DNA of 41,528 bases from positions 99,848 to 141,375 of the forward strand of contig MHCP01000028.1 in the NCBI GenBank assembly GCA_001816655.1. Direction: 5' to 3'. A program made the position numbers and the translations under genes. Origin of the DNA: Candidatus Woykebacteria bacterium RBG_13_40_15 (GTDB taxonomy: Bacteria; Patescibacteriota; Microgenomatia; Woykebacterales; RBG-16-39-9b). The notes beneath the pieces are model-generated. The model was given only the letters and a program-made list of their open reading frames with translations. It did not search any database and was not told the origin of the DNA. Below are positions 3,234 through 22,289 of the stretch, in pieces. Position 1 is the stretch's first letter, and each line of letters begins with the position of its first letter.

Positions 3234-3278
3234 CTACCTTTACACACCAACTCCTCTATGCTAGAATAATCCGACTAA

Positions 3279-6326: not shown

Positions 6327-7031
6327 ATGGACGAAGAAAAGAAGCCACAAGAAAAAGTTGAATCCTCCTCCGCTCAAAGTACGGAGGACAAGGAAGCTTC
6401 AGAAGAAGCAGAAAAAGCCGAAGGTTCTGCTGAAGAAGCCAAAGAGGCATCCGAAGAAGCAAAAGAAGCCGCAGAGGAAGCTAAAGAAGAGGTAAAGGAA
6501 GAAGTTGCTGAAGTTAAAGAGGAGGTAAAAGAAACAGTTGCTGAGGCTAAAGAGAATCCGCCAGCTGGCGGAAAGGCCGAAGCTCCAAAACCGGAACCTA
6601 AAAAAGACCTGCCTGCCGGCAAGGCAGGAATAAAAGTTACTGGCAAATTGGCCGATATCATTAAGGATCTTGAAGGACTGTCAGTTCTTGAGTTAGCTGA
6701 TTTAGTAAAGGCTTTGGAAGACCGTTTTGGCGTAAGTGCTTCAGCACCAGTCGCGGTAGCAGCCGCGGGAGCAGCTCCTGCTGGAGGAGGCGCTGAAGGT
6801 GCACCAGAGGAAGGCCAAACTACTTTCAACGTAATGTTGGCCGATTCAGGGGCTAATAAGATAGGTGTAATAAAGGTAGTTAGGGAACTAGTTCCTACAC
6901 TTGGACTTAAAGAAGCAAAAGACCTAGTTGACGCCGCTCCAAAGCAGGTTTTGGAAGGTGTAAATAAAGAGACGGCAAACGAGGCTAAATCCAAGTTAGA
7001 GGCTGCTGGAGCAAAAGTGGAGTTAAAGTAA
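6327..7031 (+). CDS. rplL: 50S ribosomal protein L7/L12 with an acidic low-complexity N-terminal extension of about 100 aa
   Basis: The C-terminal 125 aa are canonical ([29 protein letters not shown]...KVELK). The first 100-107 codons are an open E/K/A-rich frame. An in-frame TTG at 6648 is a possible alternative start. Confidence 0.88.
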
Positions 7032-7054: not shown

Positions 7055-7085
7055 AAAAGCCCCCATTTGGGGGTTTTTTGTTTTC
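7055..7085 (+). terminator. Rho-independent terminator of the rplJL operon
   Basis: AAAGCCCCC-ATTT-GGGGGTTTTTTG immediately after the rplL stop. Confidence 0.85.
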
Positions 7086-7156
7086 AGAAGAACTGGAGGC
7101 GCAGGAAACGATTGAGACTAGCTCGCTCGTCCCCCACGCCCCCAAAGTAGTCGCCG

Positions 7157-7191
7157 GTGAGGTGGGAAGCTCGGAAGCCCGAGAACCTCAC
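7157..7191 (-). terminator. Compound 3' hairpin of high-G+C cassette A
   Basis: Outer stem GTGAGG/CCTCAC and inner stem CTCGG/CCGAG, beginning 12 nt after the stop of 7203-7805. No U-run. Same architecture as 10046-10086. Confidence 0.5.
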
Positions 7192-7202
7192 TGACACAGT
7201 AG

Positions 7203-7805
7203 TTAGCCGAGTGCCACTCTGATCACTTCCGGTGTTCCCCCAAGGTACTCACCGTTGGGCTTCTTCACCAAGACAGAGGCCACTCCCGGTTGGCTAATAC
7301 CCTCAAGCAAAGCGACCTTGGTTCGCGCCTGCTGCTCTTTCATCGGCTTCCCACTTTCATCAGCAGGCGTGTACACATACGAGGGCATTGACATGGTGTA
7401 CCCACCACGTACCTCCAGGAAAATGCTAAGCGCCGCGTTCTTGTGGAGGTTCTGGGCTGTTTTGTGTGATTGCTCGAGCAAACCTATGGCTGCGTCCATC
7501 CAGGCCTTATCATTCCTAATGAACGCAATCACCTCCTGCCACGCTTCGCATGCTGGGCCTTCAAGGCTGCCGCTCTCTACAAACTCATCGGCAGCCTTTA
7601 TGACAAGGTCAAGATAGCCGCGGTCCTGCAGGAAAGGAATGGCCATCTGTTTCGCGCTACCTGCGTGTGTACGATCCTTCTCCGCGATCTCTGCCTTTAG
7701 TTTCTGGTTATCCGCTGTGATGTCCCCCCGAATGACCAATAGTATGATCACTGCGACGACCAGAAGCGCGCCTAAGAACAATAGGCTACCGGTTAATGCG
7801 TCCAC
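7203..7805 (-). CDS. Hypothetical N-terminally membrane-anchored protein, high-G+C cassette A
   Basis: GTG start with a perfect AAGGAGG RBS 5 nt upstream. N-terminal TM helix LLFLGALLVVAVIILLVI. I counted 53-55% G+C in two 60-nt lines, against 33% in a neighbouring DUF2207 line. Confidence 0.65.
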   Translation of the reverse strand: MDALTGSLLFLGALLVVAVIILLVIRGDITADNQKLKAEIAEKDRTHAGSAKQMAIPFLQDRGYLDLVIKAADEFVESGSLEGPACEAWQEVIAFIRNDKAWMDAAIGLLEQSHKTAQNLHKNAALSIFLEVRGGYTMSMPSYVYTPADESGKPMKEQQARTKVALLEGISQPGVASVLVKKPNGEYLGGTPEVIRVALG

Positions 7806-7940
7806 AACGACCTCCTTATCCAGGTCTTTGAACTTTCTTCACATTGTGCTCTGAAGAGTGAAAGCTCTTCCCTAGCTTCCAAACCTCGCAGAAACTTCCT
7901 GCTGTTTATTGACAGCAATTTACCATTAACAAAATTAACA

Positions 7941-8020
7941 GCAAGTTGTTATCGGCAAACTCTAAGGGATTCTAGCAAAAAAGAAACGAGAAGTAAAGCT
8001 ATGGGACTAAAGCTAATTTA
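7941..8020 (-). promoter_or_regulatory. Promoter and leader-start module of cassette A (paralogue of 10681-10752)
   Basis: On the minus strand: TTTACT (rc of 7992-7997), 17 nt, then extended -10 TGCTAGAAT (rc of 7969-7977). Flanking TAAATTAGCT and CAACTTGC blocks are shared with 10681-10752. Confidence 0.6.
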
Positions 8021-9868
8021 GCCAGCGCCGCCTCCACCGCCTCCCCCTCCTCCACCGCCTCCACCGGAAAATCCTCCACCACTACCAGCTGCAAAACCAG
8101 AAGCCACACTACTCGAAACGCCACTTATACCTACCGAAAAGGCGGCAAAGGAAGAAACAGCCGCTCCACCTGAAGAAGTGTACCAGGAAGGTACTTGTTC
8201 ACCTAAAATTTGCGGCATCAACTTTAAGATTTTTTCAGTTTTGCCAAAAAGTGCGCCAAAAACTAAGTACTCTTCCCAAATTGGCAATAGCTGCGGAAGA
8301 GTGTCTTTAAAATGAGAAAAGTCGCCCAAAAAGTTTTTAAAACCCTGCCATTTATTGGCTTCCAGACCGTATGAGAGGGTCCAGCGTTTCATAAATGAAA
8401 TGGGTGCTATGCCAAGCCTATGAGCAATAGCCATGAACACAATACTAAGGAAAACTATTCCATACAATAAATTGGTAATGATAGGGATCGCAGCATCTGT
8501 TTGGGATATAAAGACCAACACGTAAAGGCCAAAAAGAGCAGCAAGTGAAATTAAAAAATATCTATTTTTACTAACACTTCCCTGCTCCAAAAATCCAAGA
8601 TTCTCTCCTTCTTTTTTAATTTGCTTGCCCCAGTTTGACCAAAAACTTTTGAAACTGCTTGTTTTCATATTCTTTTTTAGATCTTCCAACTTAAAGGCCG
8701 CCAAAAGATCTGTTTGTTTTAAGCCAAAGCCAATCATTTCCTCATTTGAAAAAACGCTTGTAATACCTCCCAGGAGGACTAAGAAGTCCATTTCAAAAGA
8801 TTTTAAGCTCTGGTCAGCCATTATTTCTTGTTGGCTCTTTTTTAGAACAATCGCATACTCATCTACTTGCCTTGAGTAAAATAAGAAATTTTTCAAAACT
8901 CTTCTATTGGCAATGGTCAGATATTTTCTTCTCGCTAAATCTAGTAGGGTAGCGGTGAACGCGTTGGGAGTAATATTATTTCCTTGATCTAAGAGGACTT
9001 CTACCAAAGCCGGTGGCAGGTCCGAGGGAGGATCATTTACATAGTAAGGAACCCCTGCTTGTTTGTACTCCTTCCCATATTTATACCATTGCCAGATCCA
9101 ATAGAGGGCCCAAGCGATGGTAAGAAGGAAAACAATTACCAAAAAGATTTTTTTATAATTTTCCCTATTCTGATAATCCTTTTCCTCAGCAAATACATCC
9201 TTCAAGGTCTTGCCTGATCGCTGAACCGAAGCAAAAGAGCCTTTCGGAAAAACAAGGCGGACCTCAACAAACTTTTTTGGCGCCACATCCGAAACCGTAA
9301 ACTGGACACTATTTTCTGAGATAAAGTCATATTTTCCGTTTGTAGGCCCGTGAGCAAAAGCATAAACTTGGTTTTTTGAAATGTTTTTTGGGTAGTTAAC
9401 TAAAATTTGGGCCTCATTTGTCCTCACATCCCAGTCCATCCCAACCACTTGCCAATAAAATTCATCGAAATCGGCCCCGCTAGATAAAGCGCCCAGTAGC
9501 TTGTAGGAAATATCAAAGGTGCGCTCTTCATTGGATGCAGAATAAGTCCAACGGGCATAATATTTTGTTCCTTGAACCCCGTTATCTGTCGGAGGAAGCG
9601 GCTTTCCGTTCTCAGAAACTTGAAAATTTTCGATCGTAGCAGAGTAAGTGTTTCCGTTTCTAGTTATCTGCAAAGGGATGTAGATATCTGCCCAACTGAA
9701 GCTTCCGTCGAAAGAATACGTGCGGTGCTCCAACACATCAATTGAGCCATCTTGACCAATTGTGTAGGTACTAGCAACCTTTGGAAAATAATAATCTTTT
9801 GCAAAGGTAGGTTTGGTAAAAAATAAGACTAAAGTAAGAAAAGGAAGGAAGATAAGAAGCCGTTTCAT
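8018..9868 (-). CDS. DUF2207-type membrane protein with a C-terminal poly-Gly tail
   Basis: Signal peptide, a large extracytoplasmic N-domain, several TM helices and the characteristic C-terminal GGGFSGGGGGGGGGGGGGAG tail. Confidence 0.75.
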   Translation of the reverse strand: MKRLLIFLPFLTLVLFFTKPTFAKDYYFPKVASTYTIGQDGSIDVLEHRTYSFDGSFSWADIYIPLQITRNGNTYSATIENFQVSENGKPLPPTDNGVQGTKYYARWTYSASNEERTFDISYKLLGALSSGADFDEFYWQVVGMDWDVRTNEAQILVNYPKNISKNQVYAFAHGPTNGKYDFISENSVQFTVSDVAPKKFVEVRLVFPKGSFASVQRSGKTLKDVFAEEKDYQNRENYKKIFLVIVFLLTIAWALYWIWQWYKYGKEYKQAGVPYYVNDPPSDLPPALVEVLLDQGNNITPNAFTATLLDLARRKYLTIANRRVLKNFLFYSRQVDEYAIVLKKSQQEIMADQSLKSFEMDFLVLLGGITSVFSNEEMIGFGLKQTDLLAAFKLEDLKKNMKTSSFKSFWSNWGKQIKKEGENLGFLEQGSVSKNRYFLISLAALFGLYVLVFISQTDAAIPIITNLLYGIVFLSIVFMAIAHRLGIAPISFMKRWTLSYGLEANKWQGFKNFLGDFSHFKDTLPQLLPIWEEYLVFGALFGKTEKILKLMPQILGEQVPSWYTSSGGAAVSSFAAFSVGISGVSSSVASGFAAGSGGGFSGGGGGGGGGGGGGAG

Positions 9869-9874
9869 ACCTTT

Positions 9875-9913
9875 ATTATATCTCGCTTAGAGAAACAAGC
9901 GCGAGATGTAATC
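9875..9913 (-). promoter_or_regulatory. Inverted-repeat promoter element, copy B (upstream of DUF2207)
   Basis: Minus-strand reading is GATTACATCTCGC-GCTTGTTTCTCTAA-GCGAGATATAAT. The TATAAT ends 6 nt before the ATG at 9868, a leaderless geometry. Confidence 0.6.
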
Positions 9914-10045
9914 TTGCGATTATTGATTTTTCTGCCTATAAATGCAACGCGGAAATCTCAACTCGGAGGATTTTAGCAAACTCTAAACAGGAGTGCTTAG
10001 AGCCCAGTCCCAAAAAGACCTAAACTTTTGGATCTACTTAGGACT

Positions 10046-10086
10046 TGGCGAGGAGGGGAAGAGCCGATTTCTCGGTTCCCTCGCCA
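10046..10086 (-). terminator. Compound 3' hairpin of high-G+C cassette B
   Basis: Outer stem TGGCGAGG/CCTCGCCA and inner stem GAGCCGA/TCGGTTC, beginning 14 nt after the stop at 10101. Base-pair-preserving differences relative to 7157-7191. Confidence 0.5.
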
Positions 10087-10100
10087 GATGTGAGCAGACG

Positions 10101-10547
10101 TTAGCTAGAGTCGCCGTATATGCAGTTAGTCCAGGATAGATAGATGTACGGCTTCTTCCCAGACTTGTCAGCGTCCGTGACTTGGATGTAACAGCCGAAC
10201 TTCTTTGTTATTGCTTCATGGATACGGGTGAGGGCAATATGGACCTCTGTAATCCTCACCCAACCATTTGCGGTTATTTCTTCCTCAAGGATACGCCAAC
10301 GGTCGCACTGTTTTCCCCAAGGATGGCCTTTTTTGCTCCTTTCTTTAGCTGCCAAATATGCAGCCGGTGCGTACACCTCCCTAATGAACGCAAGGGCGTG
10401 AGACTCCTCTTTTCGTTTATCAAGGAGTCGAACCAGACATGCCACATTCTTGACTCTGGGGTAGCAGAAAGCCCTGAAAGCCACCCCACTTGCCAAGACG
10501 GCCAGTGAAATGCCTAGTACCCAGATCAAAAAAGTCTCGTCTCCCAC
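10101..10547 (-). CDS. Hypothetical N-terminally membrane-anchored protein, high-G+C cassette B (start uncertain)
   Basis: TM helix FLIWVLGISLAVLASGVAF followed by a globular part of about 120 aa. I counted 48-57% G+C in two 60-nt lines. I prefer the GTG at 10547, because the track start at 10718 overlaps the -10 element. Confidence 0.55.
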   Translation of the reverse strand: MGDETFLIWVLGISLAVLASGVAFRAFCYPRVKNVACLVRLLDKRKEESHALAFIREVYAPAAYLAAKERSKKGHPWGKQCDRWRILEEEITANGWVRITEVHIALTRIHEAITKKFGCYIQVTDADKSGKKPYIYLSWTNCIYGDSS

Positions 10548-10680
10548 CTGATTCTCTCTTTCTGCTCCAGCGGTTCTTTGTCGGTCCCGGTGCTTTGGAA
10601 GTATCCTTCCCCAGACCCTCCGGTGCTTTGGAATTCGAGGGTGATTTGCTGGTAGCAAGCTGCAATCGAAAACCTTCAAT

Positions 10681-10752
10681 CGCAAGTTGCTACCAACAAC
10701 TTGCAAAAATTTTAGCACAAATAAAACAAAAAGTAAAGCCTATAGCTAATTT
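10681..10752 (-). promoter_or_regulatory. Promoter and leader-start module of cassette B (paralogue of 7941-8020)
   Basis: On the minus strand: TTTACT (rc of 10731-10736), 17 nt, then TGCTAAAAT (rc of 10708-10716). TAAATTAGCT lies at 10743-10752 and a hairpin GCAAGTTG/CAACTTGC at 10681-10703. Confidence 0.6.
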
Positions 10753-10917
10753 ACTCTGCCTACAGGTACCGCTATTACGAAACTAGCGTCTTTGAACTAG
10801 CTAAAAACTGAAGAGGAAACTGGAACTGAACCGCCAGCTGTCGGTGAATTCCAGAGGATGTCCCGAAGTTTTTAGCGTAGTTCAACAGCTAGCGAAGTCT
10901 AGCGGCAATTTTAGTGC

Positions 10918-10937
10918 TACCTTTTTTGCAAAAGGTA
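10918..10937. repeat. AT-rich palindrome TACCTTTT-TTGC-AAAAGGTA (partner copy at 11766-11789)
   Basis: Two 8-bp arms, followed by ACAAAAA exactly as in the 11766-11789 copy. Confidence 0.6.
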
Positions 10938-10978
10938 ACAAAAAGGGATTGGCCCGCCGAATTTTAGCATTCGCCTTT

Positions 10979-11046: not shown

Positions 11047-11109
11047 GCCCCGAACCAAGAATTTCTTTCTGGTTCGGGGCTTGACAACTTATTTTCTATT
11101 GTGATACTT
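11047..11109 (+). promoter_or_regulatory. 11-bp perfect hairpin abutting the promoter of the HTH gene
   Basis: GCCCCGAACCA-12 nt-TGGTTCGGGGC (11047-11080) is directly followed by TTGACA (11081-11086), 17 nt, then ATACTT (11104-11109). Confidence 0.5.
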
Positions 11110-11166
11110 TTAAGACCACTTAATTATAAGAAAGGTAGTGAACTGTCCAGAAAGGATATCTTTCTT

Positions 11167-11367
11167 ATGTCTCTTGGAGATGAATTACCAGAGCTATTGA
11201 CTGTAAAAGAAGTCGCAACTTTCTTGAGGGTTTCTCCACTTACAATCAAACGCTGGGGCAAGCGTGGTAAACTTCCCGCCATCAGAATCAACGCACGCGG
11301 TGATAGACGGTACAAAAAGGAAGCTGTATTGTGGTTGTTAGGTGAGATGAAGAAAGAGGTTGCTTAA
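11167..11367 (+). CDS. Excisionase-family (MerR-superfamily) helix-turn-helix DNA-binding protein, 66 aa
   Basis: LLTVKEVATFLRVSPLTIKRWGKRGKLPAIRINARGDRRYKKEAV is the classic excisionase-type HTH pattern. Start placed at the ATG at 11167. The upstream part of the track ORF runs through the hairpin and promoter. Confidence 0.75.
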   Translation: MSLGDELPELLTVKEVATFLRVSPLTIKRWGKRGKLPAIRINARGDRRYKKEAVLWLLGEMKKEVA

Positions 11368-11502: not shown

Positions 11503-11765
11503 CTTCGCACTTCGCGCCAAGCTTGAAGAAAGAAATAGCCTAATAAGTTAAATTCGAAAGCTCAAATCCGAAACTCTAAACAAATTCCAAATTTCACCAT
11601 TATTTAATCCGGCCTTAGATTAGTCAGCGTTAAGAAATTGAGCTCTTCGAGGCGGCCTGAAAGGAAATTTTTCATGTTCGAATCCTGAAGCTTTGAAGGA
11701 GAGTTTGAAAAATTAGGTGAGAACAGCGAGATTTTAGCTGGAGGATCTTGGCCGGCGCCTTTGGT

Positions 11766-11789
11766 GTCACCTTTTGCGCAAAAGGTGAC
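11766..11789. repeat. Perfect 24-nt palindrome GTCACCTTTTGCGCAAAAGGTGAC
   Basis: Perfect dyad 5 nt after the GH94 stop codon. There is no U-run on either strand. It is related to 10918-10937. Confidence 0.7.
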
Positions 11790-11794
11790 AAAAA

Positions 11795-22088: not shown

Positions 22089-22158
22089 AGTGTAGGCTTG
22101 CCTGACAACGGCCAGGTTTGAATTTTAGCACAATGTGGATTAGAATAAAAGGATTCCG

Positions 22159-22233: not shown

Positions 22234-22289
22234 GCTTAAAAATCCTTTCTTTTTTACTCCGAATTTTATTTCTGCTAAAATTAAGTTGC

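Follow-up and report, generated by a model that had tools for sequence, protein, structure and literature searches.

The stretch of DNA analyzed here (the window: 41,528 nt from Candidatus Woykebacteria bacterium RBG_13_40_15, 40% G+C overall; all coordinates are positions within it) raises the question of how two small G+C-rich open reading frames (ORFs), ORF A and ORF B, came to carry similar flanks on either side of a gene of host-like composition. Up to position 7031 the plus strand carries a tRNA cluster and then secE-nusG-rplKAJL; beyond it, the minus strand carries ORF A (7203-7805, 200 aa), a gene for a 616-aa DUF2207 membrane protein (8018-9868; Pfam PF09972 and PF20990) and ORF B (10101-10547, 148 aa), followed by a small HTH_17 gene on the plus strand (11167-11367) and a GH94 gene on the minus strand. 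A preliminary description of the sequence had placed both ORFs at these positions, where we found them as well, and had read them as unrelated cargo in a cassette-like arrangement rather than as ordinary paralogues. Our analysis points the other way: ORF A and ORF B are probably anciently diverged paralogues of an undescribed protein family, residing in a flexible islet and seen so far only in Woykebacteria-like Microgenomates of the Candidate Phyla Radiation (CPR).

Both ORFs were rightly singled out as compositional outliers. ORF A has 54% G+C (0.61, 0.39 and 0.62 at codon positions 1, 2 and 3, termed GC1, GC2 and GC3) and ORF B 49% (0.51, 0.43 and 0.54), against a GC3 of 0.28-0.38 (about 0.32) in 18 other window genes. 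The enrichment extends over every codon position and the transcribed untranslated regions (UTRs), the promoters excepted. The DUF2207 gene is host-like, with 41% G+C overall instead of the 33% first reported, 36-43% per 300-nt window and a GC3 of 0.38. The asymmetry of G+C among codon positions, which bears on an earlier worry that the segments might be structured RNAs, argues for both ORFs being genuine coding sequence. ORF A is preceded by a ribosome-binding site (AAGGAGG, with 5 nt to a GTG start). For ORF B, the GTG at 10547 was taken as the start because it fits the six-sequence alignment described below and because a longer version from an alternative upstream start (201-205 aa) would begin within the gene's own promoter.

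Homologues of ORF A and ORF B

With ORF A and ORF B as queries, nothing but the queries themselves came back from word-indexed searches of 5.8 billion proteins. Using phmmer, ORF A retrieved three distant relatives (P0035, P0036 and P0037) from 1.84 billion representative proteins, and these homologues align full length at 26-31% identity; P0035, of 204 aa, gave E = 1.6e-12 at 31% identity over the full length. The locus of P0035 (L064; L-numbers denote related loci retrieved for comparison) mirrors the window, with HTH_17, then cargo, then the ORF A homologue convergent with rplL. The cargo between HTH_17 and the ORF A homologue is a 183-aa VOC/glyoxalase-like gene, from which the HTH_17 gene, whose product is 89% identical to that of the window, faces away. 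Both cargo genes at L064 have 52-58% G+C (GC3 0.60 and 0.64) between flanks of 35-39% G+C (GC3 0.34-0.39). Since the family, its position and its composition all recur in this genome, the ORF A family does not look like a one-off foreign insert.

The connection to ORF B came from L068, in which an ORF of 219 aa (1285-1944) adjoins an HTH_17 gene (94% identical) with GH94 on the far side, as ORF B does. The L068 protein matched the ORF A profile (E = 1.5e-7) and, by BLASTP, ORF B (E = 2e-5, 31% identity over 64 ungapped residues). It is tied to ORF A, ORF B and the L066 member by phmmer, and a jackhmmer search seeded with it gathers all six members of the family, which we divide into an A type (ORF A, L064, L065 and L066) and a B type (ORF B and L068). 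Comparison of a five-member profile with ORF B by hhalign gave 75.6% probability (P = 2.4e-5, or P = 0.0013 when L068 was left out), and five columns of the six-sequence alignment, A55, A72, E74, W89 and H114 in ORF A numbering, are invariant with ORF B included. We also observed a 14-nt exact in-frame match, TTGCGTTCATTAGG, encoding AFIR, between ORF A (7515-7528) and ORF B (10380-10393). Its score was attained by 1 of 300 shuffles, and the positions are non-homologous in the family alignment; either chance or a small conversion patch would account for it.

Family proteins comprise 150-220 aa. A tiny N-terminal tail leads into one transmembrane (TM) helix, after which come a long helix rich in Lys, Arg and Glu, then a helical bundle and finally a small beta domain. 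An AlphaFold2 model of ORF A, built from a five-sequence alignment with a mean predicted local distance difference test score (pLDDT) of 87 and a predicted template modelling score (pTM) of 0.65, has a long helix at residues 2-61 (TM plus stalk), a helical bundle at 64-120 and a small beta domain at 127-190; the single-sequence model of ORF B (pLDDT 53) was too poor for comparison. In all six members the tail has 3-7 residues and no Lys or Arg, and the segment following the TM helix is rich in both. By the positive-inside rule, the proteins are probably oriented N-out, C-in, with the soluble part in the cytoplasm, which reverses the cytoplasmic tail proposed in the preliminary description.

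LemA is the usual small TM neighbor of DUF2207, and a gene for a small protein with an N-terminal TM helix beside a DUF2207 gene resembles LemA-DUF2207 neighborhoods. Unlike in those neighborhoods, the LemA profile (PF04011) matched neither ORF A nor ORF B at E ≤ 1 and none of the six members at E ≤ 0.05, and the family and DUF2207 each occur without the other (family members without DUF2207 in L064 and L068; DUF2207 without family members in L001, L002 and L149). No PADLOC match was obtained for ORF A, ORF B or DUF2207, and a search of IMG/VR viral contigs with ORF A found no relatives. Genes with roles in conflict or interaction typically have strong promoters, diverge extremely beside highly conserved neighbors and are present in some genomes and absent from others. 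Because the family has strong predicted expression signals, diverges extremely beside conserved neighbors and varies in presence and absence, we offer as a tentative guess that it could have a role in conflict or envelope interaction, such as phage exclusion or host contact.

A variable gap between rplL and HTH_17

With HTH_17 as the anchor, we collected loci from GTDB species genomes (80) and JGI metagenomes (80); the best matches were Candidatus Woykebacteria, and the rest were Microgenomates except for some records with plainly wrong labels. HTH_17 is preceded on its own strand by rplJ-rplL in 105 of these loci. Across the 105 loci, the stretch separating the two flanks ranges from 100 to 6197 nt and is empty (under 350 nt) in 34, and the 124 gap ORFs (counted at ≥ 80 aa) fell into 95 BLASTP clusters. 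HTH_17 itself is 89-97% identical in close relatives and 77-97% across the class. The rplL-HTH_17 gap is a gain-and-loss hot spot throughout Microgenomates. Empty gaps are found even among close relatives (L148, with an HTH protein 97% identical to that of the window, L152, L153 and L156). At L149 the 5´ end of the DUF2207 gene lies directly beside the HTH promoter, without ORF B; at L071 only a relic of the family hairpin described below is left.

Within the Woykebacteria-like clade, a G+C-rich composition is a repeated finding for small genes of the gap. Besides the family members (the L068 cargo has a GC3 of 0.50), L151 has a VOC-like gene alone (GC3 0.65), L070 a different 187-aa TM protein (GC3 0.61) and L067 a 103-aa signal-anchored ORF (GC3 0.69). 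A second family of G+C-rich cargo recurs in the form of the VOC/glyoxalase-like protein with its hydrophobic C-terminal tail (GC3 0.60-0.65), with copies at L064 2537-3088, L151 6237-6797 and L065 1-169.

These features resemble flexible islets such as defense hot spots and capsule or O-antigen loci in their conserved flanks, variable content, empty sites and atypical cargo composition, and the combination of conserved flanks with variable content including empty sites across 105 loci is what defines such an islet. The gap differs from known islets in being tiny (0.1-6 kb) and in following the rplKAJL operon directly, a position usually occupied by rpoB. It differs further in that no integrase, tRNA or repeat boundary was seen at the rplL-HTH_17 gap, in that the cargo comes as individual small genes that each have a predicted promoter and a putative terminator, and in that replacement through recombination in the flanks is something we infer here.

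The left flank, rplL (6327-7031, plus strand), encodes an L7/L12 of 234 aa with an acidic N-terminal extension. Comparable proteins of 208-234 aa are encoded at L064 4077-4763, L067 3598-4254 and L069 6083-6763; an extra ~100 N-terminal residues rich in Glu, Lys and Ala precede the normal protein and are common to Woykebacteria-like relatives. The intrinsic terminator hairpin of rplL, CCCCCATTTGGGGG (7060-7073), has a T run on both strands, that of the minus strand flagged by a terminator scan and that of the plus strand seen by inspection, and probably also ends the ORF A transcript. The right flank, the HTH_17 gene with its promoter at ~11081-11108, encodes a BldC/excisionase-like protein of 66 aa that scored 39.9 bits against Pfam HTH_17 (cut-off 27) and 43.6 against NCBIfam HTH_BldC (cut-off 77), so that it is BldC-like in a loose sense only. 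It resembles mad1 in PADLOC, the sole such resemblance among ORF A, ORF B, DUF2207 and HTH_17.

The DUF2207 gene is a separate insert of host composition between the two paralogues, with its own -10 box, TGCTAAAAT, at 9970-9978. As a synteny anchor it was rejected, as its closest relatives are ~50% identical and lie in another context, next to UvrD and RmuC. A run of ~17 glycines from (GGN)n ends its product (window 8021-8080), and the 3´ end of the gene is therefore locally G+C-rich, with tandem 9-nt repeats.

Other conserved elements were seen at the HTH_17 edge of the gap. One, of ~170 nt, separates the ORF B promoter from HTH_17 (10770-10942), with further copies at L155 987-1157 and L147 595-768. 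The three copies are 78% identical despite differing neighbors and fold as a long hairpin; when just these three sequences are compared, both partners differ at 10 of its pairs. No Rfam family matched the element, which may be a new small RNA on either strand, and its terminal hairpin recurs at 11750-11793. In several relatives, the -35 box of the HTH_17 promoter (TTGACA) is the 3´ arm of a hairpin, GTCAACCCC...GGGGTTGACAAC (window 11060-11110; L148 ~905-960; L156 ~2210-2260; L149 ~270-350), and at L149 the box is present twice, ~40 nt apart. The hairpin and the doubling of the -35 box could be an insertion or deletion scar at the gap edge.

Promoters, leaders and 3´ hairpins

The upstream flanks that had first suggested a shared module were examined at both genes, on the minus strand. 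The ORF A promoter module (7941-8020) has TAAATTAGCT at 8011-8020, a TTTACT -35 box at 7992-7997, an extended -10 box, TGCTAGAAT, at 7969-7977 and CAACTTGC at the transcript start; the ORF B module (10681-10753) has TAAATTAGCT at 10744-10753, TTTACT at 10732-10737 and TGCTAAAAT at 10709-10717. The stop codon of DUF2207 (8018-8020) provides the first three bases of the TAAATTAGCT of ORF A. The -35 box, the 17-nt spacer and the extended -10 box given in the preliminary description were thus present at both genes: both predicted promoters score as TTTACT-17-TA(G/A)AAT, TG-extended, and conform to the sigma-70 extended -10 type. From TAAATTAGCT through CAACTTGC the two 5´ regions align at ~78% identity, with a local alignment score of 39 compared to 17.4 ± 2.4 in shuffles (z = 9).

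The alignment bears out the similarity of the modules, but part of it is not particular to this pair. The TTTAC-N17-TGCTAnAAT core also occurs at 3239-3267 (plus strand, secE), 22122-22150 (minus strand, tRNA) and 22253-22281 (plus strand, serpin), and the 29-nt core of ORF B has 6 differences from the serpin promoter and likewise 6 from the ORF A core. TTTAC-N17-TGCTA(A/G)AAT, an extended -10 with a weak -35, seems to be the strong-promoter consensus of the organism, which leaves TAAATTAGCT and CAACTTGC as the only pair-specific parts. The full module had 0 matches in 185,579 GTDB species genomes and 0 in JGI metagenomes, and partial patterns in IMG/VR matched just an unrelated phage coding sequence and generic promoters. 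Orthologues elsewhere have promoters of the form TTGACA-17-TAAGAT (L064-L066) or of another type (L068); neither TAAATTAGCT nor CAACTTGC is present in them, and their leaders are without the additional 50-60 nt with which the window leaders begin. Either window promoter resembles the other more than it resembles those of its orthologues; an A-type mark, TCCCATA directly upstream of the -35 box, is kept in the ORF A promoter, as in L064. Because TAAATTAGCT and CAACTTGC are missing from the orthologues, their presence at both window genes probably reflects a copying event between the paralogues, along with adaptation to the host consensus.

Leaders of about 150 nt had been predicted, and we obtained ~157 nt for ORF A (7806-7962) and ~155 nt for ORF B (10548-10702). 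The ORF A leader has a hairpin at 7860-7880 with the loop AGGGAAG (GGAAG at 7867-7871). The ORF B leader begins with a 25-bp 5´-terminal hairpin (10646-10699, z = -4.8) and contains a 14-nt direct repeat at 10587-10600 and 10620-10633; its GGAAG (10606-10610) pairs with an adjacent CUUCC.

Downstream, hairpins start 11-15 nt past both stop codons and have the same nested shape. That of ORF A (7157-7191, minus strand) consists of GUGAGG...CCUCAC around an inner CUCGG-GCUU-CCGAG hairpin, without a U tract and with CUUCCC (7164-7169) unpaired in an internal loop; that of ORF B (10046-10086, minus strand) consists of GGCGAGG...CCUCGCC with CUUCCCC at 10055-10061. Positions and shape agree with the matching hairpins of the preliminary description. 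The claim that the two match was not borne out pairwise, as the 3´ regions are not significantly similar (z = -0.7). Neither hairpin exceeds its shuffles in stability (z = -0.6 and -1.7), and the relatedness of the two became convincing only after homologues were added. The L068 gene ends in CTGGCGAGG-AA-CTTCCCCTCCTCGCCA followed by T7, and the arms of the ORF B hairpin are identical to those of this orthologue, with an inner stem-loop inserted and the T run lost. The same scheme fits L065, L064 and the L071 relic. A U tract is present after the orthologous hairpins of L068 (T7) and L065 (CTTTT) and absent from the window copies, which were not flagged by the terminator scan. Over the family, the stem has 90.5% of cells paired, two compensatory pairs and a length of 6-9 bp; 40 of 500 shuffles equalled these values, and every slid register was worse.

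A covariance model of the hairpin (R1) was scanned against the window and 163 related loci (1.64 Mb in total). R1 matched 7152-7196 at 33.7 bits and the ORF B hairpin at 40.5 bits, and in the 1.64 Mb found only family-associated copies, including the L071 relic, with none adjoining any other gene. No RNA family in Rfam matched the region at gathering or E-value thresholds, and a different terminator hairpin, GGGTGCGCG...CGCGCACCC, is conserved in the VOC-like cargo family. On these comparisons, leader motif and 3´ hairpin descend together with the gene and do not act as boundaries for the capture of unrelated ones. The expectation that module or hairpin would flank further, different ORFs was therefore not borne out.

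The leaders and 3´ UTRs of the family share a second feature. GGAAG is the sole 5-mer present in all six leaders and CTTCC the sole 5-mer in all six 3´ UTRs; the two are exact reverse complements, and 0 of 2000 shuffles gave such a pair. As background, GGAAG occurs upstream of 13 of 135 ORFs and CTTCC downstream of 10 of 135. Five of the six leaders have GG(G)AAG as part of a local hairpin loop, at a distance of 42-67 nt from the start codon and on stems that differ in sequence among members, and CUUCCC(C) is unpaired in ORF A and L068, in an internal loop or in the loop of the 3´ hairpin. Complementarity extends over 5-7 nt in all six members, and positions flanking the core covary, from G-C to A-U in L065 and from G-C to U-A in L064, while L066 breaks one pair. 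ORF B is different: both of its motifs pair locally, with a partner close by. Whole-UTR RNAduplex energies were no better than those of shuffles (z -1.5 to +1.6), and the six UTR sets are related and hence not independent observations.

Complementary motifs in the two UTRs of an mRNA can, by pairing, control its translation or decay. Such pairing within one bacterial mRNA has been described for icaR of S. aureus (PMC3868564) and hbs of B. subtilis (PMC5737220). As in those mRNAs, a C/U-rich 3´-UTR motif (CUUCCC) complements a purine-rich 5´-UTR motif (GGGAAG) and is conserved across homologues. The icaR 3´ motif has the Shine-Dalgarno region as its direct pairing partner (PMC3868564), whereas here the partner would be a separate hairpin loop ~60 nt before the start codon, and the predicted contact, known from sequence alone, would be loop-to-loop over 5-7 bp. 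The joint proposal that the family mRNAs are closed by a conserved contact between 5´ GGGAAG and 3´ CUUCCC loops, exchanged for local partners in ORF B, and that the gap is a site of recombination-driven exchange, is as a whole doubtful. We also considered that the leader loop might be a CsrA-type (GGA-in-loop) or other protein-binding site that works with the GGA-containing Shine-Dalgarno sequence, the 3´ CUUCC being coincidental or part of a terminator. A GGA loop upstream of a GGA-containing Shine-Dalgarno sequence is the known architecture of CsrA sites, and in five of six leaders a short hairpin has GGA in its loop, with an AAGGAGG-type sequence following 42-67 nt downstream. No CsrA gene came up, although none was searched for. 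This account appears improbable, as it would leave to coincidence both the exact complementarity between the sole leader 5-mer and the sole 3´-UTR 5-mer and the flanking changes from G-C to A-U and from G-C to U-A.

Origin of the two genes and of their composition

How the pair arose, and how its composition is kept, can be weighed from these observations. That the G+C-rich segments encode structured noncoding RNAs, with the ORFs as accidents of composition, would fit the long shadow ORFs on the opposite strand and the structured UTRs, and is scarcely credible given the asymmetric codon-position G+C, the ribosome-binding site of ORF A, protein homologues that align over their full length, the confident AlphaFold2 model and the lack of any Rfam match. 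A single recent horizontal transfer from a donor of higher G+C (a phage, a plasmid or the host of a symbiont), with the shared flanks as donor sequence, could explain GC3 values of 0.54-0.62 beside 0.32 in host genes, the likewise G+C-rich 3´ UTR, the weak PHROG match of ORF A and the excisionase-type HTH gene next door. We consider such a transfer quite unlikely: the same family occupies the same site in other genomes, and the B-type hairpin has an orthologue there; the HTH gene accompanies rplL on the chromosome in >100 genomes, as a conserved neighbor and not as a mobile-element marker; the promoters fit the host consensus; neither an IMG/VR homologue nor a BFVD structural match was found; and the divergence between ORF A and ORF B is far too great for a recent duplicate.

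A true cassette system, in which the promoter module and the 3´ hairpin are boundaries or recombination sites that capture and express unrelated foreign genes, also has observations in its favor, namely that each unit is self-contained, that the promoter modules are ~78% identical, that the composition looks foreign and that the locus gains and loses genes. The one-gene units, the structured 3´ element and the tandem same-orientation array at a variable locus recall integron cassettes. Those cassettes are promoterless, are expressed from a common Pc promoter and end in an attC site, an element present on many unrelated cassettes and recognized by the adjacent IntI integrase. ORF A and ORF B, by contrast, each have their own promoter and are paralogues; the 3´ hairpin is 35-41 nt, has no attC core sites and is confined to one gene family; and the annotated neighbors are rplL, DUF2207, HTH_17 and GH94, with no integrase or recombinase among them. 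With the two cargo genes homologous, the module absent from the GTDB genomes and JGI metagenomes, no R1 copy beside other cargo, and different hairpins and promoters on the other cargo families, a cassette system is very unlikely and already close to refuted. The preference for a cassette over paralogy, stated in the preliminary description, falls on its own terms, with the module found nowhere else and the ORFs appearing as distant paralogues. What survives of it is a set of self-contained units at a fluid locus, with a foreign-looking composition that is genuine and recurs in relatives. The arrangement is modular at the level of the locus, but the flanks that the two units share are inherited with one gene family.

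In the reading that we favor, an old paralogue pair in a flexible islet, each gene would be transcribed on its own, from a predicted strong promoter of the sigma-70 extended -10 type, with ~155 nt of structured leader ahead of it and a G+C-rich stem-loop at the 3´ end. Orthologues are ≤ 31% identical, while the adjoining HTH gene is ~90% identical. As silent sites evolving in place should already have reached the G+C content of the host, the composition calls either for replacement of alleles or for upkeep of G+C in place. We lean towards replacement of alleles from a gene pool of higher G+C, by recombination in the conserved flanks, for which rplL and HTH_17 would be the obvious homology arms, and not through a single recent transfer from outside. 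The bolder version, in which small conflict-type genes are swapped among Microgenomates as highly divergent, G+C-rich alleles in a form of cassette exchange without an integrase, belongs to the joint proposal judged doubtful above.

Several points weigh against this reading. Direct comparison of ORF A with ORF B was not significant, either by BLASTP (E = 0.28) or by alignment with shuffles; in this sense the first impression that the two proteins do not look alike was sound, and it is the profile comparison that makes them remote homologues and the lack of direct similarity that makes the duplication old. The link between them runs through one bridging sequence and profiles from 5-6 sequences, and the family comprises six members, three of them on contigs of <1 kb. 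Pfam, NCBIfam and PHROGs gave nothing usable or consistent for the members; the single PHROG match (ORF A, weak, E = 1.3e-4) was not common to the others. Foldseek searches of PDB and BFVD gave only matches with E > 0.04 and a query-normalized TM-score ≤ 0.25, and a profile search of PDB sequences gave no match. The topology is read from charge distribution alone, and the copying of promoters between paralogues is what we infer from present-day sequences. Finally, the DUF2207 gene, the cupredoxin-like genes and the gene for a 1497-aa protein in the gap are not G+C-rich, and selection or biased gene conversion that keeps G+C high in place remains an alternative to allele replacement; the present data would fit either.

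A paralogue pair in a flexible islet is a known kind of thing, and the persistently high G+C and the complementary UTR motifs are two features of this one worth recording. The attractive idea of a cassette with foreign cargo gives way to a documented paralogue family, seen six times among ~15 billion predicted proteins, with a confident predicted fold that has no counterpart among solved or viral structures. The UTR pair is a compact, testable candidate for 5´-3´ UTR communication in a bacterial mRNA. That the cargo is G+C-rich despite ≤ 31% identity raises the question of how composition is maintained, and the hypervariable site directly after rplKAJL, common to Microgenomates, offers a handle for gene flow in unculturable CPR genomes.

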